64,000 nucleotides of DNA from Tubiluchus corallicola (GCA_030141605.1 JAQGDQ010002389.1:1-64000), one strand, 5' to 3'; shown: positions 3,588-62,292, counted from the first letter of the stretch. The notes: a model not told the origin generated them from the sequence alone. Numbers and translations are program-made.

Positions 3588-3605
3588 GAAAGGAGCTTTG
3601 TAAAA

Positions 3606-17136: not shown

Positions 17137-17147
17137 TCAATAACTTC

Positions 17148-17170
17148 AGGGTTGGCTATCAGCCAACCCT
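17148..17170 (+). promoter_or_regulatory. Intercistronic hairpin after dctP (mRNA stabiliser or partial terminator)
   Basis: Perfect 10-bp stem AGGGTTGGCT-atc-AGCCAACCCT. Confidence 0.6.
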
Positions 17171-17211
17171 ATTATTGTATAGCGCCCTATGACAAAGCTG
17201 AAAACTATCCC

Positions 17212-17685
17212 ATGATGAAACTGAAAAAAATAGCCTATAACATGGATGACATCGTTGCATGTATTGCTTTGCTGTCTTTAATAATTCTAACGATACTGGC
17301 TGTTATATTACGCTATGCTTTCAACAGCCCTATCCAATGGCAAGAAGAGATTTCCCTTCTTTTAGTTGTCTGGTTTGTTTTTATAGGAGCAAGTAGCACA
17401 ACAAAGCGTGAACTTCATATCTGTATTGACTCTTTAGTTTCTTATTTTCCTATAAGAATTCAACTTTTTTTAAGTTTATTTGTTTTGTTTTTTACAATTG
17501 CCGTATTGATAGTAGTTGCCTACTACGCAGGGCACCTTATGCTCAATACATCCCAATTAACAGATATTTTAAAAATACATTACTTTTTTATGTATTTACC
17601 GGTTTTGGGCGGAACACTGTTAATGATTTGCCACTCTACAGCCAATTTAATCAGCACGATTAAAACGATTATAGGTAAGGGTTAA
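17212..17685 (+). CDS. dctQ: TRAP transporter small permease
   Basis: VILRYAFNSPIQWQEEIS, HICIDSL; four TM segments. Start moved to ATG 17212, downstream of the hairpin. Confidence 0.88.
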   Translation: MMKLKKIAYNMDDIVACIALLSLIILTILAVILRYAFNSPIQWQEEISLLLVVWFVFIGASSTTKRELHICIDSLVSYFPIRIQLFLSLFVLFFTIAVLIVVAYYAGHLMLNTSQLTDILKIHYFFMYLPVLGGTLLMICHSTANLISTIKTIIGKG

Positions 17686-17687
17686 GT

Positions 17688-18968: not shown

Positions 18969-18986
18969 TTAAATTAGGATGAAAAA

Positions 18987-20003
18987 ATGAAAGCATTAGT
19001 TTGCCATAAGCCCAATGATATATCTTATGTTGAAGTAGAAAAACCCACCCCACAAGCAGGAGAAATATTATTAAAAGTTGCAGCTGTCGGAATCTGTGGC
19101 ACAGATATCCACGCCTATTTAGGCAAACAACCCTTTTTTTCCTACCCTCGTATTTTAGGCCATGAGATCAGTGGCTCTATAGAAGCAGTAGGGCAAGGCG
19201 TTAAAAAACAAATTGGAAAAAAAGGAATTGTAATCCCTGCTATAGCCTGCGGCGCCTGCTCGGCTTGTCGTGTCGGAAAACCAAATTGTTGCGAATCGAT
19301 TTCTGTAATGGGGGTACATCAAGACGGTGGTTTCCAGGAATATATAACCGTGCCGGAAAAAAATATACTTATAGTACCGGATAATCTTTCCTTCTCTGCC
19401 TGTGCTCTGATTGAGCCTTTTGCAATCGCTGGCCACGCTGTGCGACGAGCAAATGTTGCGGCTACAGATAAAGTCCTTGTCGTCGGCGCTGGCGCCATTG
19501 GCATTGGTGTAGCAACTATTGTTAAATCCTTAGGAGCCGAAGTCATTGTAGCAGAAGTCTCTAAGGAGCGCCGAGAACATATAGAAACCCGTTGCCAAAT
19601 CTCTACATTAAATCCACTAGATGAGAAGTTTCAAGATATTTTAAAAAAAGCCTTTGACGGCGTTCTACCGAATATATTATTAGACGCTACAGGGAACAAG
19701 GATTCCATGTCAAACAGTGTTCATTATATTTCCCATGCGGGAAGAATTGTTTTTATTGGCTTATACCAAGGTAACTTAGAATTGGACGATCCTACATTTC
19801 ACAAAAAAGAAACGACCTTATTGGCATCCCGTAATGCCAATAAAGAAGACTTTCAACAGGTAATTGATATGTTTCAAACAGGAGCATTACAAGAAAAAAT
19901 GATGAAAAACCAAGAGTTTTCTTTTTCTACATTTGGAAACAGCTATCATAAAGATGTTGCAAGCAATCCCTGCCTTGTTAAAGGGGTCGTTTTGTTTGAT
20001 TAA
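18987..20003 (+). CDS. Zn-dependent dehydrogenase, L-galactonate 5-dehydrogenase (LgoD/YjjN)-like
   Basis: GICGTDIHAY.GKQPFFSYPRILGHE, CGACSACRVGKPNCC, GVHQDGG, FHKKETTLLASRNA; linked to uxaB. Confidence 0.75.
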   Translation: MKALVCHKPNDISYVEVEKPTPQAGEILLKVAAVGICGTDIHAYLGKQPFFSYPRILGHEISGSIEAVGQGVKKQIGKKGIVIPAIACGACSACRVGKPNCCESISVMGVHQDGGFQEYITVPEKNILIVPDNLSFSACALIEPFAIAGHAVRRANVAATDKVLVVGAGAIGIGVATIVKSLGAEVIVAEVSKERREHIETRCQISTLNPLDEKFQDILKKAFDGVLPNILLDATGNKDSMSNSVHYISHAGRIVFIGLYQGNLELDDPTFHKKETTLLASRNANKEDFQQVIDMFQTGALQEKMMKNQEFSFSTFGNSYHKDVASNPCLVKGVVLFD

Positions 20004-21805: not shown

Positions 21806-22888
21806 TTAATTGACATCATCAAAAAAAAGAATCGCTTCTATCTTATTTTGGGAAGGATCTTTTTGTGTACCACTACAAGGTAATATATTAGTAGTTTCTT
21901 TTGTTATATCAAAAAAAGCTCTGCAGCCCCACAATTTACTTTTTCCACGCTCTATTTGTACATTTCCTGTTAATGTGATACTGTCTTCATAAATATTATA
22001 TGTTCCATAATCCGCAAAAATTATTTCTGCCGGAGAAACAATCTTAACATTATCAGAAACCTCAAAACGATGAATAGAAAATTGATCTTCCAATAAAGCA
22101 GGATCCGCAAAAGCTTGTAAATTGTCCGCGTAAAGTTCGTAAAGTTTATCATCCGCTTTTATATGATGGATTGCTTTTACATGGCCGGATAAAGTAATGA
22201 TGCCTTTTTCAATATCATATTTTCCCTGATCCGCCCAAAGAATCTTCTCTGATTCCGTCTCTTTGGAAACAATCTTAACATTATCAATAGCGTCAAAACG
22301 ATAAAATGAACGACCTTCTGTATTTGAATGGGAAAAAGCCTTCATTTCATCAGCGTAAAGAGTATAATCCTTACTATCAAGAGACGTTTTTCCCGTTGCT
22401 GTAATCACCCCTAAAGCACCATCATAAAATAAATGTTCTTCTGATTCCAAGCGCGCCATATCTGTCTCATAATAAATACCCGGCCCCTTAAGCTCCAGAG
22501 TATCATTCCCAATATGATACTCTCCCCAACTCGCTCCGGCTTGCTTGTCAGGATTGTCAAAAAAAACATCCTCTTCAGCGACTAATCGTGAAATCGCTAT
22601 CTTCCCGTCAGAAGCTCTCTCATACCAAACCGTTAAAAGAGAGGCTTGGATTTTACTGTCAGTAGATTCTATGATCGCATTGCCGCGTGCAATAAAAAAA
22701 TTCTCATTGCGCCGCCATTCAATACCATTATCCGCTGAAATGTTGATCGGAGAGTGAAACTGCTGGGGAAACATTTCAAAACTATAAGCTGGAAAAGGAA
22801 AGAAAAAAAATAAAACCGCAGAAGAAAAAAAACCTCCAAAAATAAAATATAAATAATTCATCTTATTTTCTAAAGCGGAAAAATACAT
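21806..22888 (-). CDS. lptA: LptA/OstA family periplasmic LPS bridge protein with repeated beta-jellyroll units
   Basis: Signal peptide, PINISADNGIEW, ARGNAII, ITLTGNVQIERG; lies between lptC and lptB. Confidence 0.82.
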   Translation of the reverse strand: MYFSALENKMNYLYFIFGGFFSSAVLFFFFPFPAYSFEMFPQQFHSPINISADNGIEWRRNENFFIARGNAIIESTDSKIQASLLTVWYERASDGKIAISRLVAEEDVFFDNPDKQAGASWGEYHIGNDTLELKGPGIYYETDMARLESEEHLFYDGALGVITATGKTSLDSKDYTLYADEMKAFSHSNTEGRSFYRFDAIDNVKIVSKETESEKILWADQGKYDIEKGIITLSGHVKAIHHIKADDKLYELYADNLQAFADPALLEDQFSIHRFEVSDNVKIVSPAEIIFADYGTYNIYEDSITLTGNVQIERGKSKLWGCRAFFDITKETTNILPCSGTQKDPSQNKIEAILFFDDVN

Positions 22889-22903: not shown

Positions 22904-23539
22904 CTACTCTTCATCATCAGGAAGGTTAATAGAAATTTTACTTCGGCCTAAAAGGTGAATATTATCCCCATTTTCAGTAATGTGAACACCTTCACCGTCC
23001 ATGCTGCCAATGCTGCTTTCACCAAGAACAGGCCTATTGCTAATGGCTTCACCGTCTTCGACAACAATAGAGGCTTCCTCTGTAAAAATAGAGTAGGGGG
23101 TTTCAACAGTTTCATAAAGAAGATTAACACTTCCCTTTAAATTTAAAACCTCATTGTCTTTATCATAAGTTCCTTCATTGCTTTTTAAAGAAACACGCTG
23201 GCCATTTTGAATCAATATATCCGCCTGAGGCTGAGAGAGCTCCATATCCTGGTCAGAATCACGAGAAAAATTGTGAACAAGATCAGCCTGAATTTTATAA
23301 TTATCCCCGTTATCTCTGCTACTGTCATACTCAGGATTGACCATTGTATGATCATAAGCCGTGTGTATCATCTTGCTGAATTGCTCATAAAGCTTTATTG
23401 AATTTCCCTGTCCATGAATCCAAGGCCATAAAAATATAAGAAAAAAAGAGCCTATAGCACTGAAAAATAAAAATGCCTTAAGAAAAAAAACAAAATGACG
23501 ATGCCAATAAAGTGTTTTCTGTAGCGCGCATATTTGCAT
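22904..23539 (-). CDS. lptC: LPS export protein LptC
   Basis: Single N-terminal TM, MVNPEY, LSQPQADI, GTYD..NEVLNLKGSVNL; operon position. Confidence 0.82.
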   Translation of the reverse strand: MQICALQKTLYWHRHFVFFLKAFLFFSAIGSFFLIFLWPWIHGQGNSIKLYEQFSKMIHTAYDHTMVNPEYDSSRDNGDNYKIQADLVHNFSRDSDQDMELSQPQADILIQNGQRVSLKSNEGTYDKDNEVLNLKGSVNLLYETVETPYSIFTEEASIVVEDGEAISNRPVLGESSIGSMDGEGVHITENGDNIHLLGRSKISINLPDDEE

Positions 23540-27957: not shown

Positions 27958-28716
27958 TTATACAATTTTTTCGCTTTTCCACAAAGATAAAGTGTGCAAT
28001 AAAGACTCTTTATTATGCCCTTCTATAATATAATTCCCTCTCCATGATATATCTTGTAAAACAGAATAGATTTTTTGGCTTAAACAAATAATCGACAGAG
28101 AGGTAGAATAGGATTGTAATTTCGACTGGAGAAAAAGAGACTTCCATATTTCCGCCGTGCGCGTTGAGTAAAAAAGAACAGAAATAAACTTTTCAGACTG
28201 CACAAGAGCAGAGAAATCAGAAGAAAAAGAGCAAGAAGAAATCGTGCGATACATACGATGATATCGATAAGAAATAGCGTGCGTTGAAAAATAAGCAAGA
28301 GGATTTCCTGTAATATGATAACCACATAGATGAAGAAGAATAGGGGAGGGAATTGGCTTTAAAAAATCTGAAATTTTCTGCAAAAGCATATCCTGATCAC
28401 CCCCCCCTTCAAAAACAAGCTTAAATCCATACGCAGCCGCCGCAGCCGCAGTCGCGCTGCTAACAGCAAAAACAGGAAGAGAAACAAGATGCCTTTTCTC
28501 TTCAGGAGAAAGCAACGCTTTTTGTAAAGCCCCCACCGTATGACGGCTTGTGATCATCAGCGCATCAATTGATAACAGAGAAGGAAAAGGAGCGCCAATA
28601 TAGCGTATTTTCATCATAGGCTCTAAAATTGTTTCATAGCCGGCTTTCTCTAAAAAAGAAGAGAGTATCCTGCCATCTTCAATCGGGCGAGTGATAATTA
28701 CGAATCGAGCTTTCAC
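27958..28716 (-). CDS. hemD: Uroporphyrinogen-III synthase (divergent)
   Basis: IITRP, ITSR, FAVSSATA, FYSTRTA; directly after hemC. Confidence 0.82.
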   Translation of the reverse strand: MKARFVIITRPIEDGRILSSFLEKAGYETILEPMMKIRYIGAPFPSLLSIDALMITSRHTVGALQKALLSPEEKRHLVSLPVFAVSSATAAAAAAYGFKLVFEGGGDQDMLLQKISDFLKPIPSPILLHLCGYHITGNPLAYFSTHAISYRYHRMYRTISSCSFSSDFSALVQSEKFISVLFYSTRTAEIWKSLFLQSKLQSYSTSLSIICLSQKIYSVLQDISWRGNYIIEGHNKESLLHTLSLWKSEKIV

Positions 28717-28718
28717 AA

Positions 28719-29678
28719 TTATACCTCTCCTTGATAGGCAGGTAAAAGAGAAGAGGGAGCTTCTTTCTTGATCTCCCGCGCTGACTCAATCGCGACATGA
28801 AGCGACTCTTTTAAAGAGCAAAAACGCTCAACTCTGAAAATATTTTTTCCATATTCATCCGATAAAAAAGCTTGGAAATGAATTTCCTCCCCCTTATAAC
28901 AAGCAAAAGCCCCTAAAGGAGTACTACAGGATCCTTCCATTTCTTGAATAAAAGCACGCTCCATTAAAACACAAGAAGCCGTCTTTTCATCATGCAGCAC
29001 AGAGAAAAAACGCTCTATATCAGCAGTAGCATGGCAACGGCAGGTAATCGCAAGAGCTCCCTGACCGGCAGATGGAATAAAATCTTCTACCGCTAAAGGA
29101 AGCGTGGTAAACTTTAAATCTAAATTCAGGCGCTTTATTCCAGCGCACGCCAGAACAATAGCATCATACTGCTCGGCTTTTAGTTTTTCTAAGCGACTGT
29201 TAATATTGCCCCTTAAAGGAATGATTTTCAGATCAGGGCGCTGCGATAATAACAAAGCTTTACGGCGTAAAGATGTCGTGCCAATAATGCTCCCGTCAGG
29301 AAGATCAAAAAGAGTCTCTATAGCATGCTGAGAAATAAGAGCATCACGTGCATCATCTCGACGAAGAATAGAGCAGATTTTTATTCCCTTTGGTAAAATT
29401 GGAGGAATATCCTTTAAAGAATTCACGCCAACATCAATCTCTCCTGCCAATAAAGACTCATCGATTTCCTTGGTAAATAACGCTTTTCCACCAATATCAA
29501 ATAACGGTCTATCTGTAATTATATCCCCTGTTGTTTTAATAAAGCTGATTGGTAAAGAATCTTCATGAGAAAGGCAGGACCATCGCTCACGAAGTTGATT
29601 GATAACTATTGAGGTCTGCGCGACCGCTAAAGCACTTCCACGAGTCCCAACGCGGATAAGGGGGCTTTCTTTATTCAT
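28719..29678 (-). CDS. hemC: Hydroxymethylbilane synthase
   Basis: GTRGSALA, GGKALFTKEI, SLKDIP, LRGNINSRL, EGSCSTPLG. Confidence 0.96.
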   Translation of the reverse strand: MNKESPLIRVGTRGSALAVAQTSIVINQLRERWSCLSHEDSLPISFIKTTGDIITDRPLFDIGGKALFTKEIDESLLAGEIDVGVNSLKDIPPILPKGIKICSILRRDDARDALISQHAIETLFDLPDGSIIGTTSLRRKALLLSQRPDLKIIPLRGNINSRLEKLKAEQYDAIVLACAGIKRLNLDLKFTTLPLAVEDFIPSAGQGALAITCRCHATADIERFFSVLHDEKTASCVLMERAFIQEMEGSCSTPLGAFACYKGEEIHFQAFLSDEYGKNIFRVERFCSLKESLHVAIESAREIKKEAPSSLLPAYQGEV

Positions 29679-34860: not shown

Positions 34861-35727
34861 TTAAAATTCTTTTAATAAATCTTCTAAATCTAATTGATCA
34901 GCAGGAATAAGATATTCGATATCCGCGTTTTCAACAAGATCTGTAATATATTCAGCTTGTAAATTCATCAAAGCCTGGCGCTCTACAGCAGAATAAATCT
35001 CTGCCAAAGGAGGCGCTGACGCCATACGACTATCCTCAACATAAATGACATGCCAACCAAAAGGCGTTTCTACCGGCTCGTTTGAATAGGTGTTGATATC
35101 TATGGAAAAAGCCGCAGAAGCAAATTCCGGAATAAGAACATCTTGACGTATCCATCCTAAATCACCACCACTGTCCGCAAGAGGATCTTCAGAATAATCC
35201 TGCGCTAATCCTTTGAAACTCGCGCCTTCCTTCAATTGGTTAATAATAGCAATCGCATCCTCTTTCTCTGCAACCAATATATGACGTAAATGGCGCTCTT
35301 CTTGCTCAGATTCATAGGCGGAAAGCATATCATACGCTGTGTTGATTTCATCCTCTAAATCAGCCTTTTTTAAAAAATCCTGTAGCGCAAACTCACCCAA
35401 TAAAGCTCGCTTAAAATCACTTAAGCGCAATTGATAATCTTCTTCCTGATCAAAATTCAACGCTTTTCCTTCTTCTGCAAGAAGGGTTTCACGAACAAGA
35501 AACTCAATAATATTATTCATAACTACTTCCTGTTCAGCATTCTGAATACTTGATAAAAGGCGAGAAGCAACATACTTGAGCTCGTTTTTGGTATAAGTTG
35601 TATCATTAACGCGTACAATAACCGTGTCATCAGATAATTTACTCTCTGCTTGCGCAAATGCGTTAAACAACAGCGTTATCGATGCAATACCGCTGAGAGC
35701 CAAGAGAGCAATTCCTTTTCTTCTCAT
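34861..35727 (-). CDS. PpiC/parvulin-type periplasmic peptidyl-prolyl isomerase
   Basis: Signal peptide; HLRHILV, GGDLGW, PEFASAAF, PVETPFGWHVI. Confidence 0.9.
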   Translation of the reverse strand: MRRKGIALLALSGIASITLLFNAFAQAESKLSDDTVIVRVNDTTYTKNELKYVASRLLSSIQNAEQEVVMNNIIEFLVRETLLAEEGKALNFDQEEDYQLRLSDFKRALLGEFALQDFLKKADLEDEINTAYDMLSAYESEQEERHLRHILVAEKEDAIAIINQLKEGASFKGLAQDYSEDPLADSGGDLGWIRQDVLIPEFASAAFSIDINTYSNEPVETPFGWHVIYVEDSRMASAPPLAEIYSAVERQALMNLQAEYITDLVENADIEYLIPADQLDLEDLLKEF

Positions 35728-35918
35728 ATAAATTTCCTCTATTTAATCGTTCATATTCTCTAATATATGAATAAAAAACATTTATCCCTATCTAGCATAT
35801 AATGGTTGTACTCTATCATTATTATTTATGCAATAATATTTTTTCAGAAGATCACAAGCATTTCAGAAAAAAAACAACAAATATCAATGAAATCCTCTGT
35901 GAGTATATAAATAAAAAT

Positions 35919-36248
35919 TTACAAAGGCTGCTTTTTACGCTCATAGCGCTTGTAAATCCTCTTTTGGTAACGATGATAGATAAAAATTGATAGTATGGTC
36001 TGTATAAAAAACCAAAAAACAAAAAAAATCCCCATTAAACGCTTTTTTTCCGCTCTAGGCTCGATAGAAGCCCTCTGAGACCAGACAGAATATTTGATCA
36101 CTTCCTCGGAAACAGCTGGCTTAAGCTCTTCTGTTATCTCAACATAAGAGGGAACAAAATCATCTTCCTGTGCATACGCTTCTGAAAAGAAACTTACGAT
36201 AAAAAAAGATAAACTTAGCACTATAACAATATTTTTTTTCATTCGCAT
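35919..36248 (-). CDS. Miniature haem-less cytochrome c1 derivative (signal peptide plus C-terminal anchor only)
   Basis: Third gene of the pet operon, ATG 1 nt after the petB stop with GAGGA RBS. Signal peptide ends ..EAYA. C-terminal W..EPRAEKKRLMG-TM-KRIY resembles c1 WAAEPxLExRKxMG-TM-KRxW. No CXXCH and no Cys. Confidence 0.7.
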   Translation of the reverse strand: MRMKKNIVIVLSLSFFIVSFFSEAYAQEDDFVPSYVEITEELKPAVSEEVIKYSVWSQRASIEPRAEKKRLMGIFFVFWFFIQTILSIFIYHRYQKRIYKRYERKKQPL

Positions 36249-36249
36249 A

Positions 36250-37458
36250 TCAGGATTTCCTCTTCTTACGTAAAAGAGCAACCGTAAGGGAAGGGGGAAT
36301 AGAGGCTTTTTTCTCAAGTGGCGTTATCCAATAAACAAGAATGAAAAAACTGAAATATCCCAAAAGCGCGATCCGCGTCAGCCATATCCATATATCAGCT
36401 TGCGGCATTGCTCCACAGATGAAAATTGTTAGGAAACAGACTAAAAAAAATCGAAGGAGCGCTTTGTAAGCAGGGCGAAAAATCGCACTATTATTAGGAG
36501 AATGATCAAGCCACGGCATAAAAAATAAAATCCCAACCATTGCTACGCATAAAATAAGAGCAAAAAATGGAGAAGGAACAGCACGAATAACAGAAAAAAA
36601 GCTCCAAAAATACCACTGAGGGCGAGCTGATAGAAAAGGAGAAAGAGGGTTAGACTCTGCGATAAAGCTGTCAGATAAAGATAAAATATCGCCAGAAAAC
36701 CAGAAAATCAGCCCCATAAGAATTGTCAGATATAAATTGATCGCGCAAAAGTCACGCACCGCAAACCATGGATAAAAAGGAACGTGATCCTGAGTAGGGA
36801 GTGTAATTCCTAAAGGATTATTAATACCTGCTTTGTGAACTGCAATAACATGAATAATAGTAATGATAATGATCAGAAAAGAGAAAAAAAGATGAAAGCT
36901 ATACATTCTCGCTAAAATTGCCTCATGAGGAACAGAGCCTCCCAAAACAAAAGAGGCAAGCGCTTCACCAATAAAAGGAACAGATGACAGTAAATGATAC
37001 AAGACAGTGGCTGCCGCGACCCCATTATGACTCCAAGAGAGAATTGATCCGAAAAAAGACGCCATAAATAAACAACAAAGAAGGAGCAAACCCGTAATCC
37101 AGACAATTTCTCGCGGCGCTTTATAACTGCCATAATAAAAAGCTTTGAAAAGGTGTAAGCCTAATATTATGAATAATAAAGAAGGAACAGTCTTGTGAAT
37201 TGCGAGAATAAACCATCCCCAAGAAATAGTTTCCTTGAAATCTAAAAGCGTTTGAAACGCATAATCCACATATGGAACATAATATAAAGAAAGTGAAAAC
37301 CCACTCAGAAAAAGAAAAAAGAGCGACAAAGAAGCTAATGCGCCTGTTGTCCATAACCAGTTAAGATTACGAGGCATACGGTGTTTCTTGAAATAGTTGA
37401 ATAATGGCTTTAAAGGAAAACGTTTTTCCAACCAATAAAAAAATAAAAAATATCTCAT
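36250..37458 (-). CDS. petB: Cytochrome b of a bc1-type complex (divergent Qo site)
   Basis: PRNLN, two H-x13-H haem pairs, YYGSYKAPRE, NNPLGI, PQWY, PWLD, FRP. Confidence 0.93.
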   Translation of the reverse strand: MRYFLFFYWLEKRFPLKPLFNYFKKHRMPRNLNWLWTTGALASLSLFFLFLSGFSLSLYYVPYVDYAFQTLLDFKETISWGWFILAIHKTVPSLLFIILGLHLFKAFYYGSYKAPREIVWITGLLLLCCLFMASFFGSILSWSHNGVAAATVLYHLLSSVPFIGEALASFVLGGSVPHEAILARMYSFHLFFSFLIIIITIIHVIAVHKAGINNPLGITLPTQDHVPFYPWFAVRDFCAINLYLTILMGLIFWFSGDILSLSDSFIAESNPLSPFLSARPQWYFWSFFSVIRAVPSPFFALILCVAMVGILFFMPWLDHSPNNSAIFRPAYKALLRFFLVCFLTIFICGAMPQADIWIWLTRIALLGYFSFFILVYWITPLEKKASIPPSLTVALLRKKRKS

Positions 37459-37480
37459 CCGTATTGATTCACATTCATTT

Positions 37481-38044
37481 CTATGAGCTTTCCTCTGTTA
37501 TACGAATTGTGCTTTCATTCAGAAAATGCCAGGGAAGCGTATCTAAATCCCGCCTTGCTGGCCCTTTAGTCACTTTGCCATATTTGTCAAAATAAGAACC
37601 ATGACACCCACAAGACCAGCCTGACCACTCCCCTCCATGCACACGATTATACTCAACATGTAATGGACAGCCTAAATGCGTACAAAGCCCAATCACAAGC
37701 TGCCATTCTGAAGTATCCTCGCCATGACGAATAATATAAACAGGCTTGTTACGCCATTGTATAACTTTCCGATCACCAGACGCTATATCGGAAATATCAA
37801 TATCAATAAAAGCAGGAGAAGAAAATTCCAAAGCCGCTTTATTAACAACAGAAGAAGGAAATAAACTTCTTAAAAAAGGCCAGCTTAATAAAATAACACT
37901 TAAACTGCTCATAATCTGAATTGTTTTTTTTAACACATCTCGCCGAGCCGCCAGATTATCATTCGCAGGAGTTATAAATAATTTGTTAAAAAGCCTTCTT
38001 GTACGAGATAAAGAAGACGGTTTGTTATGGCGAAAAGTACTCAT
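37481..38044 (-). CDS. petA: Rieske iron-sulfur subunit of a bc1-type complex
   Basis: Tat-like RRDVL plus TM; WRNKPVYI; CTHLGC and CGCHGS boxes; GPA. Confidence 0.92.
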   Translation of the reverse strand: MSTFRHNKPSSLSRTRRLFNKLFITPANDNLAARRDVLKKTIQIMSSLSVILLSWPFLRSLFPSSVVNKAALEFSSPAFIDIDISDIASGDRKVIQWRNKPVYIIRHGEDTSEWQLVIGLCTHLGCPLHVEYNRVHGGEWSGWSCGCHGSYFDKYGKVTKGPARRDLDTLPWHFLNESTIRITEESS

Positions 38045-38282
38045 TTGAAGATACTCTAAAATATAATATTAAAGTTGCTACTCTTATAGGGAGACTCATA
38101 AAATACACAGATACTTAAGCTATAAATTATACTAAAATATAGCATAATTTATGGTAAAAAATATTTCAAGCCGAATCAACTTAATAGAGCGTATCATTAT
38201 AACAGCAAGAGTGCGGTATTATAATACCTCGGCATTAATGTGTTGTTTTTGATGAATTTTTACAGTTATTATTTTCTTTTTA

Positions 38283-38310
38283 TTGACATACTTGCCTAAA
38301 AGCTTATGAT
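38283..38310 (+). promoter_or_regulatory. Sigma70-type promoter of rplM-rpsI
   Basis: TTGACA, 16 bp, TATGAT. Confidence 0.6.
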
Positions 38311-38427
38311 AAACTTCTTATATTTGCATAAAATCTATCTTTTTATGTAAAGCTACTGAAATTTATAAATTAAACCCTATGATAATTTCAGTAATACAAG
38401 AAATCATAGAAGAATGGGAACTTACAG

Positions 38428-38889
38428 ATGACAATGAAAACCTGGTCGGCAAAGCCATCTGATATTGAGCGAAAATGGTATGTGATAGATGCAACAAACC
38501 TTATTTTAGGGCGCCTTTCGGCTATTGCTGCTTCTCGCCTTCGCGGCAAGCATAAACCAATTTTTACGCCTCATATGGATTGTGGTGACCATATTATTAT
38601 CATTAATGCAGAAAAAGTACGCTTAACCGGCAGAAAAAATCAACGCCGCTTTTATTGGCATACAGGCTATCCCGGCGGTATTAAATCCAGAACAATGGGG
38701 CAAATTTTAGAAGGTCCGCATCCGCAGCGTGTTGTTTATAAAGCTGTCGAACGTATGATCAGCCGTAATCCTTTGGGACGCAGGCAAATGAAAAAACTTC
38801 ACGTCTATGCAGGAAGTGAACATCCTCATGAGGCTCAAAAACCGGAAGTTTTAGATGTCGCATCAATGAACCCCAAAAATAGGAGATAG
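38428..38889 (+). CDS. rplM: 50S ribosomal protein L13
   Basis: [32 protein letters not shown]. Confidence 0.98.
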
Positions 38890-47941: not shown

Positions 47942-48874
47942 ATGGCTCCTTTTTATGTTTCTCGGCAGTTTTTCATAAAGAGTATCATTGTTTTTATACT
48001 CTTATGGGCCCTCTATGGAGGAGTGCTAATAGGGATCGCTATTGTATTCCTTATGAAAACAACTGATTATCAATATGCTAAAATCTCCCTTTATCCACAT
48101 AAAACGTCTATTGCACTTTATCATCTCTCTTTAAAAGAAAATAATATCCATTTCTACGCTCCAAAAGGAAGCGTCCATATCTCTTTTTTAGCTCCCTGGG
48201 AGCTCAGAGGAAACCTCAAAGAAGCCAAAATAAAAACAGTAGATACAGCCATTGAGCTCTCTGCTACAGATGCGCATTTTCAAATGGATTTATTGGCAAA
48301 AGAGCGCTCATCACTTGCATTATATAAAACAATTTTCTCCTATAATCTTGTTCAAATTCATAATGATATTATAAAAATAGGGTATAAAACAGAAACGCAT
48401 CATGATAAAGATTCATCAGCGTATCGTATGGATTTTTATAGCGATAAGAGCTATTTATCTCTACATGGGTTCACAGATGGTCTTATATTTGATGCAATTG
48501 TAGGAGAGTTTAAGGTAACAAAAGCTTTTGATAACAACGCGCATAAATCTACCCTTGTTGAAATCATAACAGCCTCTGCGCTTTTTTCTTCTCTTGCTGA
48601 AGTAAATGACAGCCAGAAGAGCTATATTTCTTTTGAGGGTCTACTGTCATTTGATCCTTTACAAAAATTTCCTGAAGGGAAGATTCTTTTCAATGCCAGA
48701 AGATTAGATGTAATTTTCTCTTTTCTGAAAAAAAATCAATTAATTGATCAAAAAATAGCGTCCATATTATCTCCTTTATCATTGCGTCCTATAGAAAATT
48801 TACCCTTACTATTTCAGGAAAATCACTTAAAAGTTGGTAATATTCCTATCACTATTCCCCTAGGAATCTATTAG
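47942..48874 (+). CDS. Membrane-anchored hypothetical protein (possibly a divergent DUF2125-like protein, by position)
   Basis: 310-aa ORF coupled to plsC; N-terminal TM, beta-rich body, C-terminal LKVGNIPI. Confidence 0.5.
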   Translation: MAPFYVSRQFFIKSIIVFILLWALYGGVLIGIAIVFLMKTTDYQYAKISLYPHKTSIALYHLSLKENNIHFYAPKGSVHISFLAPWELRGNLKEAKIKTVDTAIELSATDAHFQMDLLAKERSSLALYKTIFSYNLVQIHNDIIKIGYKTETHHDKDSSAYRMDFYSDKSYLSLHGFTDGLIFDAIVGEFKVTKAFDNNAHKSTLVEIITASALFSSLAEVNDSQKSYISFEGLLSFDPLQKFPEGKILFNARRLDVIFSFLKKNQLIDQKIASILSPLSLRPIENLPLLFQENHLKVGNIPITIPLGIY

Positions 48875-49484
48875 CCTTACAGAAAAATATAATAGGCTTT
48901 TATAATCCTGCCACAAATAAGCTATGGCATTTTAAAAAGATTAATATTCCAAAGAGTAGGGTGCTCTTAATTCTCATTTTTCTCATGCGCACTAATGAGA
49001 GAGCTGCTATAGGGTAAAAACATTTTCTGTAAACTGTTGAAGAGAATTCTGACAGCAAAAATATTGTCTGCCATTGTTTATTGCTGCTTAACCGAAAAAT
49101 GGCTGGTGAAAACAAACAGCCAGATAGTGTATAGATTCTTCGAAAAAATTAAGGCTGTGGATTGTGATCGTTTAGAGATTCAAAATAATATTAATTTACA
49201 GCATTAAAATCCATCTCATATAGTTAAAAAATAAAATAATAATTTATTCTTAATTATTTGCAATTTATGTATTATTTATAATTTAACATAATATAAATTA
49301 TGCGACAATTTTCAAGCTATAAAAGAGCGAACAATAAAGTATGTATATTGAAGCGTTATCGCTATAGAATTAAAATAATAACAAACTTCAAGAGTGTTAT
49401 GTCACCTATTACCATCCAAAATACTTTTTTGACGAAACTTCTATAAACCCTCTCTTGTAATACTTTCTTTATTACCAGCCTATA

Positions 49485-49720
49485 TTTGATATAGCTATAT
49501 AAATCCTTTTCACTTGGATATATTTTCTCTAATAGGATTACTAGCTGGTGATAGTAATAGAAAATATAGCAAGATATCCTCTGCCTTTCTGAACAAACTT
49601 GTCCTTCTTTTCTCTTGTAGAAATATGGCATTGCTTATGAAGATGAACATATTTTAGCCAGCCTAGATAACAAGCCTTCCACTTCTTATATCAAAAAATA
49701 TCCGCATTGATAGTGCTATA
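49485..49720 (-). pseudogene. Possible highly decayed IS630-family transposase fragment
   Basis: Broken frames read TINADIF..W and ISNAIF..LLYFLLLSPASNPIRENISK*KGFI, resembling MDNAxFH..LLFLPPYSPDLNPIExxWxxLK. Confidence 0.3.
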
Positions 49721-49721
49721 T

Positions 49722-50155
49722 GAAGCTGGTTTGGTATATATGGCATCTTTCAGAAATTTTAAACAATCCTGAAGTAATGGGTTGGATTTTAGAGAGTTTG
49801 GTTAAGCTTTACCAGTATGGATATGATGCACGGAGGAAAATGTTCTTATTCCTATGCAGACGGATGGAAAGGATCTTACAGGTCAGATTTTTCAGTGGGA
49901 TGAATATTATGGGAAGAAAGGAAGAAAGTTCCAAAGATCAACTTTATTATTGGACCATGCTATTCCCTATGATCGCGGGTATTCATTGACAAATGGTATA
50001 CGTCTATGATGTGTGCTCCGGAAGATTCCTAAGTGATTTGGCATGGGAAATATTGGTGTTAATCCATATGCTGTTCATTATTTAAATATGAAAACCATAC
50101 TTGATGATCCTAAGGCTATTTTTCTATTGATCGATATTTTTCATGCTACAAAACA
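49722..50155 (+). pseudogene. Decayed inverted partial copy of the PL2 pectate lyase gene
   Basis: With two frameshifts and two TGA stops it reads GLVYM/HLSEILNNPEVM..QYGYDA/EENVLIPMQTDGKDLTGQ..LLLDHAIPY..DDPKAIFLLIDIFHATK, matching about 54727-55157 on the minus strand. Confidence 0.93.
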
Positions 50156-51918
50156 AGCTGACAGCGAGTAAAATATTTCCGACTACAAGTGGATATTGAT
50201 GCTATTTGTGCCATTTTTATTCTTACACGCCGTGAGAACATACTTTAATTTGTGTATAACTACATATGCGCTATATCATTAGAAAAGCCCATAAATAATA
50301 AGACATTCCCTATCTTCATACAATCTAATTAGAGTCCGACAACACACCCTTTTCGTATTGCTGTAGAATTTTTGTTGTAGGAGCGTAAACTCCCAAATAG
50401 CGAGCATACACCAATATGATCATGAACATAAAAAGCTAACGGCTAGCATATCAAGTCTTAGTTATCCTCTTATTGGGCGTTTTCTTATGTTTTTGGCTTT
50501 TATAAGCCAGTATGCAGTCATGCTATCATAACATTATCCCCTCTATCCTAATATTAAAGTGAGCTTCATTCCTCTTGATCATTGTAATACTTTGTTTCTT
50601 ATGAACGGGAAAGAGTTTAGAGCCATAAATCTGATGAGCAGACAATCCTTGAATATAATCAATTTATAGCGTATTGGCCGTATTTACGTCTCTTTCCAAG
50701 CAGCCGCAGAAGTAGCATTAAAGTTCGTTAGGAAAATTATATTACTGTAAAAAGAATTATAGAAAGTAAATATATTTAAAAAACATAAATATAACCAACG
50801 TCTTATTTGCCTTCTAAAGGATTCAACAGACTTTTTTCAATACATAAAGCATCTTCAGAAACATGCATATTCCTGCGGTTTTCGGCAGTGAGTTAACTTT
50901 CTTCAGGTCAGAAGCAGAAACGCCTATTAAAAATAGAGCGAATGCTTACGGATTTTGGAAGGGGTAATTATATGGTTTATAATATATGTGCGCTTTCTAA
51001 GATTCAGTTGCATTAAGTTATTGGGAATCCATGTTTTTGGAAGAATTTATTTTGCCGTTACCCATGAGGATATAGATGGAATTTACACAGGAAGTGATGA
51101 TGTAGATACTATGGTATTGATTGTTTTGATAAGTTCACAGACGGAAACAACGAGTATTTCTATTGGCCAGGTAGCTGATAATAGCGATTTTATTGCATCT
51201 GGAGAGGGATTTATGCTTCCTTCCTTAATTCCTTCTTAAAATATTATTCACCTTGATAGCGTGATCTTAAAATACTGACATTATTAATGCCACTTGCCTC
51301 TATCATAAAGATCTAAGAGCGTTAAAGCCATAATAGATAAAAGATATGAAAATTGCATTAAAAATCCCCTACTCCTGCCTCTTTTTCCTTTTAAGGCAAA
51401 AGAATTCATTGAAGTGAAAAACGGGCCTTTGTTCTTAAGGAATATTTTATTTTCTGAAAGAGGGTCTTTGGAAAAAGAGAGAAGATATAAAGATAGGAAC
51501 GATACAAAAAGAATTGGCATGTTTATACATATATAACAACACAATAAACCATTATATATAATGCAATATATTAATATCGTTCTTTTTTTAAAAACAACGC
51601 GATAAAGTTGGTTGTTTTCTACATAAAACATCACAAAAATAACTATATAACAAATGGATATAAATATTTATCAATGTAAAACATTAATAAATTAAAAAAC
51701 ATCTCATTAAACAACATATGAATAGCATTTTTCTTCAATATTTTTCCATTACTTCAATCACGTATAAATCAATATAAAAATATCTTGGAAATAGAGCTAT
51801 AACTTACCTTCTTATTTAAATGTCTCTACAGGCATCTTTTAGCTACCACACTCATCCCCTCTCCTTTTTCTTCTTTGTTCCTTGGCTTGTTTCGATTTTA
51901 TTCATGCTTGAGGCATGA

Positions 51919-51935
51919 TTGGCATCCTTTTTGCT
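51919..51935 (+). promoter_or_regulatory. Sigma54-type -24/-12 promoter
   Basis: TTGGCATCCTTTTTGCT has exact GG-N10-GC spacing, 47 nt upstream of ATG 51983. Confidence 0.6.
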
Positions 51936-51982
51936 CCTATAAAAACAACTCACAAACATAATTAAGCAAAAGGATCATAAAT

Positions 51983-52630
51983 ATGAAACAGGGCGTTATA
52001 AAAAAAATCTCTTTTATCACACTTTTATCTTTATTGATTTCTTTTTTACAAATTACACAATCCTATGCCGCAAAAGAAAATAATGGCTTTATTTTCAATA
52101 CAGAGGCTAAAAATTTACCAAAAGAAATAAACTTCCCTAAATGGGATTATGCTTTTGAAACCTCTATGAAAAAACTTGCAGACAAAACAGAAGAAAAAAC
52201 ATTTAAAAAATGGAAAGAATTTATTGAAACAGCCCAAACATACCAACGGCATAAACAGTTAATGGCTGTAAACGCATATGTTAACAAACTGAAATATGTT
52301 AAAGATATCAATAACTGGGGAAAAAAAGATTATTGGGCTTCTATAGACGAAACACTGAAAAAAAATAGTGGAGATTGCGAAGATTACGCCATTTTAAAAT
52401 ATATGACATTAAAAGCCTTAGGATGGGATATGAAAAATATAACACTGCTTGTCGTTAGAAATACAAAAGGAAAAAACTTTATACACGCCGTTTTAGCTAT
52501 TCACTCTCCACAAGACAATAAAACATATATCATGGATAACAGATATTCTTATGTTTATCATGATAAAAAAGTTAGCAGTTATGAGCCTCTCTACGCTATT
52601 AATGAAAATAATTTATGGTACTATAATTAA
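51983..52630 (+). CDS. Periplasmic transglutaminase-like cysteine peptidase (BTLCP / peptidase C93, LapG-like)
   Basis: Signal peptide; VNAYVN, D..NWGKKDYWAS, GDCEDYAILKY, HAVL, YIMDN (Cys-His-Asp triad). Confidence 0.92.
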   Translation: MKQGVIKKISFITLLSLLISFLQITQSYAAKENNGFIFNTEAKNLPKEINFPKWDYAFETSMKKLADKTEEKTFKKWKEFIETAQTYQRHKQLMAVNAYVNKLKYVKDINNWGKKDYWASIDETLKKNSGDCEDYAILKYMTLKALGWDMKNITLLVVRNTKGKNFIHAVLAIHSPQDNKTYIMDNRYSYVYHDKKVSSYEPLYAINENNLWYYN

Positions 52631-53317
52631 GGTAATTATACGCGCTTGGCAACACTTCAATAATCTAACATACTAAGCTCTACAAGGATAACAGAGGTGT
52701 TTTAGATATTAAAAAATTTGATAACTTAGTAGAATTTCAGAAAGAATTTTCAACTGAATTAAAATATATTAAGCATTTAATAAAATTATGTTGGCAATAT
52801 AAAGTAAACTGCCTTCATTGTGGAAGAGTTGAAAAAATATGAAAATTAAAATCACCTACTATGTTTAAGTGTGGCACTTGTAACCGCCAGTTTTCTGTAA
52901 GAGTTAGCACTATCTTTGAAGGGGATTCTGCTTTACCTTTACAAAAATGGTTTTTAGCTTAAATAAATCACAAGAAAGAACGACTTGGTAAAGACTTGGG
53001 AGTAAGACAAGCTACGGCTTGATTTATGTAGCAACTCATTAGATACGCCCTTACTTATAATGCTATAGAAAAAACGATTAAAGAATATAGAATGGTGAAA
53101 CTCGCACAAATATACCATTGAAGGTGCATTTCTCTTATTTTAAAAGATATCTAAATGGTACACACTACCAAATAAGTCAAAAGCACTCAGGGGAATATAT
53201 ATAAACTCTTTTATATACAAGTATAACAATAGAGAAAGCACTAATTGTGCTATGTTTAATGAATCTATGAATTTGGTGTTTGGTAAAAGATTAGAGTATA
53301 AAAAGTTAGTTAGCTAA
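52631..53317 (+). mobile_element. IS1595-family (ISXO2-like) element remnant, internally deleted and multiply disrupted
   Basis: Reads CLHCG..FKCGTCNRQFSVRVSTIFE..LPLQKWFLA*..LGKDLGVRQATA*FM, then TN/TIEGAF../KR..YNNR..GKRLEYKKL. Candidate left end GGTAATTAT at 52631. Confidence 0.88.
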
Positions 53318-54061
53318 CCCGATATATTCAACAACTTCATACTGGCTAATAGATTGATTGGGATTGTAATGTACATTTACAGAACATATATGAAGCTTAT
53401 CTTTAAAAAAAGTATTTTCTAAGTTAAATTGATTTATTATTCCATCTGCAAAAATTACTTTTTTGCTTTTATTTTCTATACTTTGTATAATCCCTTTATA
53501 TGTTTTAGCCTCTCCTTTAGAAACTGTTTCTAAGCTTAATTCTACGCTCTTATATAATTCACATTCTTTTTTTAAAGCAGATGATACGTTTTTTAAAGCA
53601 AATACGCTATCGTGTATTTGCTTTGTTGTATCTTTATCTAATGAATATTTTATATCCTCTTTACCTGGTGCTTGTATATAAAAATTAATTTGGTTAACAG
53701 TATTAAAATCTTCTGTAACATTATGTAATGTGTTTACTTGATTTTTAGCTTCTTTATCTTTTTCTTTAAACTTACTTAATACGCTATCCATATTATTTTC
53801 AGCATGTTTTAGAGTATTTATAACATACTTGCCAAACTCATAAACACCGTGACTAACTATACCAGTTATAATTGGAACCATAACATATTGTGAAAATTCA
53901 AAAATTACAGAGCCATCTTTTACACTTTGTATACTAAGAGATGAATTTTTATTAGTAAATCTCGCATACTCCTTTTTTAAGCCAGTAAGATAATTAGTAA
54001 AATCAGATAAAGACAAGCCTTCTTTTCTATCATAATCAATACGAATCTGTAACTTTTCCAC
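53306..54061 (-). CDS. Hypothetical 251-aa protein, candidate IS passenger gene
   Basis: Intact GTG-start ORF, very AT-rich, convergent with and overlapping the transposase remnant stop. Confidence 0.75.
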   Translation of the reverse strand: MEKLQIRIDYDRKEGLSLSDFTNYLTGLKKEYARFTNKNSSLSIQSVKDGSVIFEFSQYVMVPIITGIVSHGVYEFGKYVINTLKHAENNMDSVLSKFKEKDKEAKNQVNTLHNVTEDFNTVNQINFYIQAPGKEDIKYSLDKDTTKQIHDSVFALKNVSSALKKECELYKSVELSLETVSKGEAKTYKGIIQSIENKSKKVIFADGIINQFNLENTFFKDKLHICSVNVHYNPNQSISQYEVVEYIGLAN

Positions 54062-54449: not shown

Positions 54450-56156
54450 TTAACGTGTTACACGATAAAAAATATTTCTATCATATGTTGTTTTTACACT
54501 TCCGTCTTCAAAAAGATACTCTCCGTGAATATAAGCACTATCAGATAAATAAAGTGGAATATCTTTCATCTCCTCTAATGCCGCAATAAGAGAAACTAAA
54601 GCAAACGCCTCTATAGAGGCAAATCTTGTATAAATATGATCAGAAGACTCTATAAAATACCCTTTTATATAACGATTCTTTAAAATATTTTCAGCAATAC
54701 GAAGTCCTAAATTCAAGTAAGCTTTTCGCTTTGTCGCATGAAAAATATCAATCAATAGAAAAATAGCTTTAGGATCATCAACTGTGGTTTGCATATTTAA
54801 ATAATGAACACCATGTGGATTAGCACCAATATCTCCCATCTCAAATCCCTTAACCATCTGTCGCAGCACACGCCATAGACGTATGTCCTTGGCTAATAAA
54901 TACCCACGAGCATAGGGAATAGCATGATCCAACAATAAAGTCGATCGTTTGAATTCTCTTCCTTTCTTCCCATAATATCCATCCCGCTGAAAAACTTGTC
55001 CCGTAAGATCCTTGCCATCCGTCCACATAGGAATAAGAGTATTTTCCTCAGCATCATATCCATATTGAGCAAACTTGACTAAACCCTCCAAAGCCCAATT
55101 CATCACCTCGGGATTGTTTAAAGCTTTTGAAAGATGCATATACACTAAACCAGACTCAGATAAAATAGTCTTCTGGTTTCTAAATAAAACGTTCCCCTCA
55201 TAGGCAACAGAACCAAACTCAGGTCCAAACTGCCGCTGCGCACGATCACCATACTTGGAGCTTGTATCCTTATCATTCTTAGGAGGCCAATCACGGCGCC
55301 TCGGAGAAGAATATTGATACACAGGAAGACCTGTCTCAGGATGGCGTGCCATAACATATTGTTTCGCTAAATGATGCCCCCAGGCTGCCGCTTGCTCATC
55401 CCTTGTGTATTTATAAAGCATACTTGCTGCGTAAATCAAATCGCTCCCAGCATTAATAAATGTCAATCCCTTTGTCTCTGCCATCTTAGGAAGAGAGTTC
55501 TGAACAACATCCACTTTTATAGCCTTGAAAATATCATCATTATAAACCTTGCTGTAAGAGCCATGGCGATTCATATCAAGCGTCTTCCAATCATCAACAT
55601 GCGCATTCCAAAGCGCTTTTAAAAGTCTAACTGTCTTGTCAGACTCAATCTGGTAGAAAAAATCATAATAAGGAAAATGGTTCTTTAATTCATGAACCAT
55701 ATTCTTATCATCTGGCCCTTCAAGCTCTAACGTATCTAAATTAATAAAACGATGTCCCCCCCAATACAAAAGACCATTCTCATCCTGATAATGATCAAAC
55801 ATATATTGAGTGATTTCTTTCGCTTTCTGCTCGTATAGATCCTTCCCTGTAATCCGTGATAAAATAACCAGCGTTTTCAAAAGCGTCTGCTGATTCGCAA
55901 AATTAGTGATCACAGCTTCACGACCATCTTCAAAACGCCATTTGACAAGCTCTCCCGTATCAATATTAATTCCATCCGCAAGCAAAGGAGAAGGCATGAC
56001 TGAACTATAACCATTTTTGAAAATTGTCTCCATAGCCTGCTCAACAGTTTGCACAATTTTTATTTCCCTTTCTGTAGCAAACCCTTGTGACCATCCCACA
56101 ATAAAAAACATACCGAAACAAAATAATAAGCCTTTTCCTGATTTTCTAAAGAACAT
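54450..56156 (-). CDS. Polysaccharide lyase family 2 pectate lyase (PelW-like) with signal peptide
   Basis: PLLADG, NFANQQ, YWGGHRF, VHELKNH, WNAHV, ETKGLTFINAG, GDRAQRQFGPEF. Confidence 0.92.
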   Translation of the reverse strand: MFFRKSGKGLLFCFGMFFIVGWSQGFATEREIKIVQTVEQAMETIFKNGYSSVMPSPLLADGINIDTGELVKWRFEDGREAVITNFANQQTLLKTLVILSRITGKDLYEQKAKEITQYMFDHYQDENGLLYWGGHRFINLDTLELEGPDDKNMVHELKNHFPYYDFFYQIESDKTVRLLKALWNAHVDDWKTLDMNRHGSYSKVYNDDIFKAIKVDVVQNSLPKMAETKGLTFINAGSDLIYAASMLYKYTRDEQAAAWGHHLAKQYVMARHPETGLPVYQYSSPRRRDWPPKNDKDTSSKYGDRAQRQFGPEFGSVAYEGNVLFRNQKTILSESGLVYMHLSKALNNPEVMNWALEGLVKFAQYGYDAEENTLIPMWTDGKDLTGQVFQRDGYYGKKGREFKRSTLLLDHAIPYARGYLLAKDIRLWRVLRQMVKGFEMGDIGANPHGVHYLNMQTTVDDPKAIFLLIDIFHATKRKAYLNLGLRIAENILKNRYIKGYFIESSDHIYTRFASIEAFALVSLIAALEEMKDIPLYLSDSAYIHGEYLFEDGSVKTTYDRNIFYRVTR

Positions 56157-56167
56157 TTTTCCAATCC

Positions 56168-58865: not shown

Positions 58866-58896
58866 ACCAAAGAATAGTTATTATATGCGCTAGATC

Positions 58897-60189: not shown

Positions 60190-60211
60190 GAGTAATTCCT
60201 CCCATAGAATC

Positions 60212-61348: not shown

Positions 61349-61377
61349 AATATTCTCCTTTATTAGTAGCTTTAAAA

Positions 61378-62289: not shown

Positions 62290-62292
62290 ATC

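Follow-up and report, generated by a model that had tools for sequence, protein, structure and literature searches.

Can a bacterium give up the haem of cytochrome c1 and still maintain the rest of its bc1 operon, and what would the remaining complex be? This question is raised by three adjacent genes at positions 35,919 to 38,044 of a 64,000-nucleotide (nt) stretch of DNA deposited under Tubiluchus corallicola (GCA_030141605.1, JAQGDQ010002389.1:1-64000; hereafter the window, with positions counted from its first letter). They are petA and petB, encoding a Rieske iron-sulfur protein (ISP) and cytochrome b, and a short open reading frame (ORF) in the place of petC, to which we refer as the mini-ORF. 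A preliminary description of this DNA had noted, 1 nt after petB, a cysteine-free ORF of 109 amino acids (aa) with a signal peptide, one transmembrane (TM) helix and a basic tail, and the sequence bears out each of these features; the short periplasmic stretch is likewise present, but measures about 47 rather than the ~40 residues first given. Our comparisons indicate that the mini-ORF very probably descends from cytochrome c1, most likely by loss of the entire haem domain with in-frame retention of export signal and anchor, as had been proposed. Its product likely serves a Rieske/cytochrome b complex as a structural subunit, and that complex would have no means of reducing cytochrome c.

The mini-ORF product contains no cysteine, and its predicted periplasmic part (residues 26-72) is also without histidine and methionine. 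With no cysteine anywhere and no histidine or methionine outside the membrane, it is unable to hold haem c in the known way. The haem-attachment motif CxxCH, present in 11 out of 11 cytochromes c1 in alignment A3, is absent, as is the segment I(A/S)M..P(L/I) with the sixth-ligand methionine. What is retained, with the topology (signal peptide, TM helix and tail) assigned by inspection only, is a predicted signal peptide with n-region MRMKK, a hydrophobic core and AYA before Q26, followed by W56, the element EP-RAEKKRLM-G at residues 63-73, a hydrophobic helix of ~20 residues (73-92) and a tail with 8 lysines or arginines in 17 residues. The C-terminal pattern that the preliminary description had given for c1 in general, WAAEP..RK.MG followed by a TM helix and KR.W, was recovered in 15 c1 genes.

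Several comparisons place the mini-ORF within cytochrome c1. In the alphaproteobacterial loci examined, petC directly follows petB. Against two profiles, full and C-terminal, built from 15 alphaproteobacterial c1 proteins, residues 29-99 of the product aligned to profile positions 186-247 with 12.2 and 15.4 bits, respectively. The c1 segment thus covered comprises the helix before the anchor, EP....(K/R)(K/R)..G, the TM helix and the basic end. As these scores are low in absolute terms, we ran controls with window ORFs and with shuffled sequences. The mini-ORF ranked first among the 370 stop-to-stop ORFs of at least 50 aa in the window (next best, 6.9 and 6.7 bits), and none of 2,000 shuffles, made segment by segment to preserve the make-up of the signal, periplasmic, TM and tail parts, reached its score (maxima of 7.2 and 10.4). 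Comparison with hhalign returned the same register as the profile alignment at P 0.0046. Complementarily, BLASTP against five fused b/c1 proteins placed residues 29-99 on the final 72 residues of the best one, P0120, and aligned residues 47-108 to residues 120-177 (helix, anchor and tail) of a short, CxxCH-bearing c1 from genome G254, with an E value of 4e-4. The mini-ORF and this short c1 have in common the tail motif R(I/V)x(K/R)RY(D/E)R, which we did not see in canonical c1. Finally, in alignment A4 the mature N terminus of the mini-ORF product (QEDDFVPSYVEIT...) matches the c1 segment directly after the Met-ligand motif I-A-M-x-P-P-L. Because the two line up in this way, we infer that the simplest history is one in-frame deletion that took out both haem-binding elements, beginning immediately behind the signal peptide and ending immediately behind the sixth-ligand segment.

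A number of results weigh against this descent. The hhalign probability was only 7.6%, the Pfam c1 model PF02167 gave no match to the mini-ORF even at E values up to 10, NCBIfam gave no c1 model match, and no family in Pfam or NCBIfam matched below E 0.03. Likewise, phmmer against 1.84 billion representative sequences returned no c1, the BLASTP alignment to the short c1 of genome G088 was not significant (E 0.8), and the match as a whole spans ~60 residues, of which one third is TM helix. The profile comparison envisaged in the preliminary description thus came out divided, with our own hidden Markov models (HMMs) and the hhalign P value speaking for c1, and the Pfam model and the hhalign probability failing to do so. 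We consider the mini-ORF a derivative of cytochrome c1 that is itself no c1, having neither CxxCH nor the Met-ligand segment nor a family match.

Searches for other identities yielded little. The sole phmmer match, P0121 (1,903 aa, repetitive), was rejected as a chance motif match amplified by repeats, as its repeat unit E.DF.P.Y.EI matches residues 28-38 of the mini-ORF product five or more times. In the PDB, an alpha-rhamnosidase matched at E 0.025, and the recombinant secretion leader of a Fab (entry 9yfu) aligned to residues 3-33 at a non-significant E value of 1.9; neither was informative. A word-index search produced four candidates, none of which scored at E values up to 10, and the best ESM Atlas score, 0.88, fell on unnamed clusters and below the level that counts. 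The supernumerary subunit IV of the Rhodobacter sphaeroides bc1 complex is comparable to the mini-ORF product in size and topology; phmmer against PDB chains, the four-subunit R. sphaeroides bc1 included, gave no supernumerary-subunit match at E values up to 10.

The position of the mini-ORF bears on a different account, in which the genome has a complete petC at another place, the mini-ORF represents a spare duplicate or a small accessory subunit, and the operon encodes an ordinary if divergent bc1. Split pet operons exist: in acetous Acetobacteraceae, petA is located apart from petBC (Degli Esposti et al. 2023, PMC10715153). However, no other ORF of the 64-kb window exceeded 6.9 bits against the c1 profile. 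Moreover, the mini-ORF both sits exactly at the petC position and aligns to c1, which points to the truncated gene being the original petC. The strongly altered Qo site and ISP described below argue against an ordinary enzyme, and a genome with the same architecture, G226, has no PF02167 match genome-wide. With the window as the part of this genome covered, we regard a second, complete petC as quite improbable.

Genome G226 emerged from a survey of 401 alphaproteobacterial genomes, in which petB was found in 329 and PF02167 in 327, with PF02167 present in 325 of the 329 petB-positive genomes (the tallies include genome G045, on which no claim rests). The four petB-positive genomes without PF02167 were G088, G148, G226 and G254. 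G148 was set aside as an uninformative c1-less case, its petB lying at a contig end. In G226 (L101), the Rieske gene is intact, and downstream of it and of petB lies an ORF at L101:2604-2867 (plus strand), whose product has a signal peptide, ~35 residues, a TM helix and a KRKRDK tail, and no CxxCH. The preliminary description had pointed to relatives as the place to look for this architecture, and here it was found: in both loci the gene after petB has no CxxCH, and its product consists of a signal peptide, a few dozen periplasmic residues, one TM helix and a basic tail. The G226 ORF aligns to the same C-terminal segment of c1 as the mini-ORF (alignment A4) and is the top of its locus against the c1 profiles, but weakly so, at 5.9 and 7.6 bits. 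Its neighbours keep the ISP boxes CPHLGC and CPCHGS and the b haem histidines, with phenylalanine at the position of the cluster-bonding tyrosine. The G226 petB is only 31% identical to that of the window and differs from it in keeping PEWY while having lost the Qi-side histidine and aspartate.

As the order-mates of G226, G355 and G052, have ordinary c1, the truncation in G226 is, judged from these genomes, an event independent of that in the window. Survival of the same piece of c1 in two independent lineages would be the best argument that the anchor is needed for assembly of the core. In the G226 genome, whose completeness is uncertain, there were no matches to the Ccm families PF01578 and PF03100 (CcmE), to the c-type cytochrome family PF13442 or to COX1 (haem-copper oxidase); cytochrome bd and NuoD are present.

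We then asked whether the three window genes are real and intact (Table 1). The mini-ORF starts with ATG at 36248, one base after the petB stop codon TGA, and given this spacing translational coupling between the two is likely; counted from an upstream TTG, the same frame would comprise 132 aa. Given the base make-up, the probability of an open frame arising by chance is ~6.5e-4 for 109 codons and ~1.8e-12 for 402 codons. A codon-usage model trained on 30 family-supported window genes (mean log-likelihood 0.238, minimum 0.125) gave 0.134 for the mini-ORF, 0.147 for petB and 0.208 for petA in the named frames, and negative values in all other five frames of each gene. In line with the earlier statement that all three ORFs are uninterrupted, their 698 codons contain no stop or frameshift, and their codon usage is coding-like. 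Promoter and terminator scans did not rise above shuffled sequence (10 versus 9.9 expected, and 1 versus 2.6 expected, respectively).

Table 1. Coordinates of the pet locus, of the parts of the mini-ORF and of the divergent neighbour in the window
Feature	Position	Strand	Basis
petA, Rieske iron-sulfur protein, 187 aa	37481..38044	minus	PF00355 E 1e-10; TIGR01416 106.2 bits (cut-off 97.4)
petB, cytochrome b, 402 aa, stop TGA	36250..37458	minus	PF00033 1.4e-36, PF00032 1.2e-20, also PF13631
GAGGA, Shine-Dalgarno-like motif within the petB 3' end, 9 nt upstream of the mini-ORF ATG	36258..36262	minus	read from sequence
mini-ORF, putative anchor-only cytochrome c1 remnant, 109 aa	35919..36248	minus	own c1 HMMs, hhalign, BLASTP, alignment A4
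mini-ORF, predicted signal peptide, residues 1-25	36248-36174	minus	inspection
mini-ORF, predicted periplasmic part, residues 26-72	36173-36033	minus	inspection
mini-ORF, predicted TM helix, residues 73-92	36032-35973	minus	inspection
mini-ORF, basic tail and stop	35972-35919	minus	inspection
rplM, divergent from petA, 383 nt apart	38428..38889	plus	72% identical to G088 copy; synteny marker common to G088

We also considered that the short ORF is an artefact, the assembler having dropped part of a normal petC. The data are of metagenome scale, and the sequencing run X1 (4.96 million contig records), the sole run spanning the junction, may itself be the source of the window DNA. Nonetheless, the Logan assembly of X1 reproduced the 2,901 bases from 35500 to 38400 within one 18,874-base contig at a depth of 13.5, with 0 differences from the window and with neither joints nor loose ends. 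An assembly deletion would, according to the preliminary description, have refuted its proposal; the assembly shows none, with the reservation that X1 is perhaps the same DNA. Furthermore, the retained parts of c1, petA and petB are all highly diverged, arguing for long evolution and against a clean cut in a normal gene. An artefact is thus scarcely credible. A run from another study, X3, contained two identical 151-base pieces within 37370-37687, at the petA/petB junction.

The companion genes show which parts of the complex have been conserved. The petA product keeps a twin-arginine motif (RRDVL), a TM helix and the cluster boxes CTHLGC and CGCHGS. In alignment A1 with nine alphaproteobacterial petA proteins, to which it is 27-36% identical, C121, H123, C126, C145, C147 and H148 are invariant, so that the four cluster ligands and both disulfide cysteines are kept. 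Three departures stand beside this conservation: a deletion of 24 residues before box I, seven extra residues in the tether, found in the window protein alone among the 10 aligned sequences, and a phenylalanine where relatives have the tyrosine that hydrogen-bonds the cluster. This tyrosine is reported to hydrogen-bond the Rieske cluster, and its change to phenylalanine to lower activity (PMC10715153). The AlphaFold2 model of the petA product had a low mean predicted local distance difference test score (64.8, with the cluster loop below 50); its best PDB matches were bc1 Rieske chains (E 2e-7 to 1e-6).

Cytochrome b presents a similar combination. The haem-ligand histidines H88, H102, H189 and H203, all in columns at least 95% conserved among 120 homologs, are kept, as are H208 and D236 on the Qi side, which we take to be Qi-site residues. 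Overall, 56 of the 97 columns with at least 95% conservation in the 120 homologs are retained and 41 changed, and mean identity to the homologs is 31.7%, versus 59.8% among the homologs themselves. The Qo site is altered, with PQWY for PEWY; substitutions are concentrated in its cd1 helix and ef loop, with nine conserved positions changed between residues 138 and 157 and twelve between 256 and 304. In a quick maximum-likelihood (ML) tree the terminal branch of the window petB measured 3.96 substitutions per site versus a median of 0.2, about 20 times longer. No cytochrome b family cut-off in NCBIfam was reached. Best identity was 35% among 5.8 billion proteins and did not exceed 37% in the 401 alphaproteobacterial genomes.

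Compared with canonical alphaproteobacterial petABC (fbcFBC), the window operon shares gene order, tight spacing, a Rieske protein with a twin-arginine translocation (Tat) motif and CTHLGC / C.CHGS boxes, the four histidines of cytochrome b, and a third gene with a Sec signal, EP....(K/R)(K/R)..G and a C-terminal anchor. It differs in the length of the third gene (109 aa, versus 253-287 aa for canonical petC, two over-long frames left out), in the identity of its cytochrome b to peers (~32% versus ~60%) and in PQWY for PEWY.

Such divergence might be expected of a functionless relic, in which cytochrome c respiration was lost, selection relaxed and petC mostly deleted while the remainder is as yet unbroken. 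The missing haem domain, the 41 changed columns of cytochrome b with identity about half that among relatives, the ISP deletion and the failure of petB to reach any NCBIfam cut-off would all fit. Yet 698 open codons at this divergence are unlikely under neutrality, for petB alone by the composition-randomised probability given above. No frame but the right one shows coding-like codon usage, the ISP and cytochrome b retain every redox ligand, and the remnant still has its signal peptide, its TM helix and its positively charged tail. G226 has independently arrived at this end state, and a related operon, in G088 and G254, is under purifying selection. Taken together, we judge a relic improbable.

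G088 and G254 are the only two species of their order in GTDB, and no closer kin of G088 was found in family, order and relatives searches. Their operons are degenerate in another way. The Rieske-like petA (L098:834-1400, plus strand, in G254; L099:2749-3306, minus strand, in G088) reads CQNLGC ... CGCDNS in both genomes, with identical altered boxes in which both histidine ligands are replaced and all four cysteines kept, and the RR motif is lost. Its product could be a cofactor-less structural ISP or carry an all-Cys/Asp cluster site. The third gene encodes a short c1 (L098:2657-3241, plus strand, 194 aa, in G254; L099:870-1484, minus strand, in G088), which keeps CxxCH and a DLSL motif and is without the canonical Met-ligand segment. 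It was missed by PF02167 at E 0.001 and detected by our alphaproteobacterial c1 profile with 30.4 and 23.4 bits. Nei-Gojobori ratios of nonsynonymous to synonymous substitution (dN/dS) between the two genomes were 0.118 for the petA-like gene, 0.051 for petB and 0.222 for the short c1, compared with 0.187 for a neighbouring gene, at saturated dS. These low ratios indicate that the degenerate operon is under purifying selection. Both genomes carry Ccm genes and one haem-copper oxidase.

In several respects these operons resemble that of the window. Genomic G+C is low (36.5-39%), as in the window, and in L099 rplM lies 319 nt from the petA-like gene, divergent as in the window; of 80 further rplM loci from Alphaproteobacteria, covered with flanks of up to 8 kb, not one holds petA or petB. 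Box II reads 'CGC' in all of them, SY(F/Y)D and the third-gene motif in the cytoplasmic tail are likewise shared, and the quick ML tree grouped the window petB with G088/G254 with a Shimodaira-Hasegawa-like approximate likelihood-ratio support of 95, the tool warning of long branches meeting. On the other hand, the proteins are only 23-34% identical to those of the window, their third gene keeps CxxCH and their ISP histidines are lost. The kinship is tentative, as the grouping joins long branches and counts of shared derived residues do not separate G088/G254 (17-19 of 47) from G226 (12 of 33), and so do not tell kinship from convergence. Residues 142-146 of cytochrome b, at the start of the cd1 helix, read W-S-x-x-G in the window, G254, G088 and G226 versus W-G-Q-M-S in the 120 homologs; this may be either a shared ancestral change or a convergent one accompanying loss of the high-potential chain.

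What the window complex might do depends first on what it lacks. No haem-bearing c1, as the exit to cytochrome c, is encoded in the operon or elsewhere in the 64-kb window. As the operon cannot make one, the usual route from the Rieske protein to cytochrome c is missing at this locus, and as read from its genes the operon is no bc1 in the functional sense. We favour, with a probability of roughly 0.55, the reading that this bacterium respires through quinol oxidases and keeps the complex as a structural module, with residual redox function at most. An in-frame deletion would have taken c1 from after the signal peptide to after the IAM..PL segment that holds the Met ligand. The remnant would be exported by Sec and cleaved after AYA, leaving its helix membrane-embedded and its tail on the cytoplasmic side, and would occupy the site, next to cytochrome b and the Rieske helix, that normally holds the c1 anchor. 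In Rhodobacter, cytochromes b and c1 form a stable core, and work in that genus is also the source for the dependence of assembly on the anchor. The anchor may have been retained because assembly of cytochrome b and the Rieske protein depends on it. With the haem domain of c1 deleted, the high-potential chain from Rieske protein through c1 to cytochrome c would be dead, and the complex may persist as a scaffold in a bacterium likely to respire through quinol oxidases. The window also carries sdhCDAB (922-4388) and hemC/hemD (27958-29678), so that a quinone pool and haem synthesis are to be expected.

A precedent for such a scaffold exists in the 'deranged' bc1 of Acetobacteraceae, in which the petABC operon is kept as intact ORFs after loss of metal ligands (Degli Esposti et al. 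2023, PMC10715153). There, according to the text of that paper, ligands are lost from the ISP and cytochrome b, while cytochrome c1 'has an intact structure'. In Acidocella the ISP ligands are lost, in Acidiphilium the ISP gene is absent and two cytochrome bH histidines are missing, and acetous taxa show Tyr165-to-Phe in the ISP. The same paper, in which Stroh et al. 2004 is reference 44, proposes that the hosts rely on quinol oxidases for respiration and that the complex serves as a scaffold, for instance by stabilising Complex I; this is one role that the window complex might share. The window operon resembles the 'deranged' systems of that text in its intact pet ORFs despite loss of a metal centre and in its Tyr165-to-Phe-type ISP change; it differs in keeping all ISP and cytochrome b ligands and in having, as its c1, a subunit without a cofactor domain. 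By its best matches the window organism lies outside the Acetobacteraceae (MutS 56% identical to Rhodospirillales, RplM 76%). The preliminary description had ranked the locus as its best candidate for a novel system. Set against the text of PMC10715153, this does not hold, as the locus is a degenerate bc1 of an already described sort; what is new is the c1 haem domain as the part lost. In literature searches we met no description of a c1 reduced to its anchor, the figures and supplements of PMC10715153 (Fig. 7, S8-S10) being outside their scope.

Three points weigh against the favoured reading. Host physiology is deduced from G226, G088 and G254, which are only 49-53% identical to the window in MutS. 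A module still active in redox chemistry would explain the retention of all ISP and cytochrome b ligands no less well than a pure scaffold does. Finally, ISP ligands have been lost in G088/G254 and, as reported in the text of PMC10715153, in Acidocella, unlike in the window. The earlier proposal of a structural subunit accordingly stands in part: it gains weight from the remnant in G226 and from dN/dS values of 0.05-0.22 in G088/G254, while the retained ligands would suit an active module no less.

Such an active module would be a haem-c-free Rieske/cytochrome b quinol oxidoreductase with a remodelled Qo site, in which the c1 remnant serves only as an anchor and a longer-tethered Rieske cluster of predicted lower potential passes its electron to a cupredoxin, another periplasmic redox protein or oxygen. 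All ISP ligands, the disulfide cysteines, the Tat motif, the cytochrome b histidines, H208 and D236 have been kept along a very long branch, and the independent G226 likewise keeps its ISP boxes and b haem histidines, whereas G088/G254, which kept the c1 haem, lost the ISP histidines and the RR motif. The seven extra tether residues, unique among the 10 sequences, also speak for activity. Archaeal Rieske/cytochrome b complexes work without a c1-type subunit; like the window system they pair a Rieske protein with a dihaem cytochrome b in the absence of a c1 haem, and they offer a model of how such a module could remain functional. They are, however, separate ancient lineages with partners of their own, and the window system would be a recent proteobacterial derivative of bc1 with a c1 anchor. 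Against activity, no candidate acceptor gene is present in the operon or the 64-kb window. Within cytochrome b, alteration is greatest in the Qo region (PQWY and nine changed positions in the cd1 helix), the tyrosine-to-phenylalanine change in the ISP is reported to lower activity (text of PMC10715153), and cofactor ligands may be kept only for folding and Tat export. We consider an active enzyme unlikely, though worth weighing. The broader proposal is about as doubtful, namely that a haem-c-free Rieske/cytochrome b complex evolved at least twice in Alphaproteobacteria by cutting c1 down to its anchor and still oxidises quinol with a non-cytochrome acceptor. If the complex were active in this way, it would be a bacterial, bc1-derived counterpart of the c1-less archaeal complexes and a new electron exit from a bc1-type enzyme.

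On the preferred reading of a structural or residual module, the locus separates a dispensable part of c1, the haem domain, from a retained part, the last periplasmic helix and the anchor, in two independent lineages, and it would provide a natural minimal c1 with which to test the part of the anchor in assembly. It also sharpens the question of why bacteria without a path to a cytochrome c oxidase keep bc1 genes, with a scaffold and a residual redox function as candidate answers. The losses are complementary: the c1 haem in the window and G226, the Rieske histidines in G088/G254 and, following the text of PMC10715153, the ISP ligands in Acidocella and the ISP gene together with bH histidines in Acidiphilium. 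This suggests that bacteria can interrupt the high-potential chain at one link or another and still retain the membrane core.

Attempts to find closer relatives of the window operon gave only distant ones. Single-protein petB scans of genome and metagenome contigs found nothing, and a scan of metagenome contigs with an alignment of three petB sequences returned 71 loci, all at most 37% identical, the same ceiling as in the 401 genomes. After the nine shortest of these had been left out, 62 loci were screened for c1 downstream of petB: 40 scored above 100 bits, six were weaker and sixteen had none. These sixteen are uninformative, as each offers at most 441 bases downstream of petB. The best matches of MutS (at most 56% identical) and RplM (at most 76%) were both to Rhodospirillales-type genomes.

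Elsewhere in the window, a pectin/galacturonate cluster at 54450-64000 (minus strand) encodes a periplasmic pectate lyase (PF06917, E 3.9e-194), GH88, GH28, an ABC sugar transporter and GH4. Genes for a tagaturonate reductase, a TRAP transporter and a Zn-dependent dehydrogenase lie at 14262-15686 (minus strand) and 16129-20003 (plus strand). Judged by these gene assignments, the pectin/galacturonate genes suggest a plant-polymer-degrading lifestyle. G+C drops to 0.28-0.32 at 48001-54000, versus ~0.38 elsewhere in the window, and no ORF of at least 120 aa occurs between 48874 and 51983, where the gene for a transglutaminase-like cysteine protease (51983-52630) follows; this low-G+C segment may be an island or a non-coding stretch. 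Finally, a 360-aa ORF at 21806-22888 (minus strand) has weak matches to LptA (residues 43-134) and LptC (residues 172-261) and adjoins a separate LptC-like gene (22904-23539) and lptB, and may encode a fused or duplicated Lpt bridge protein.

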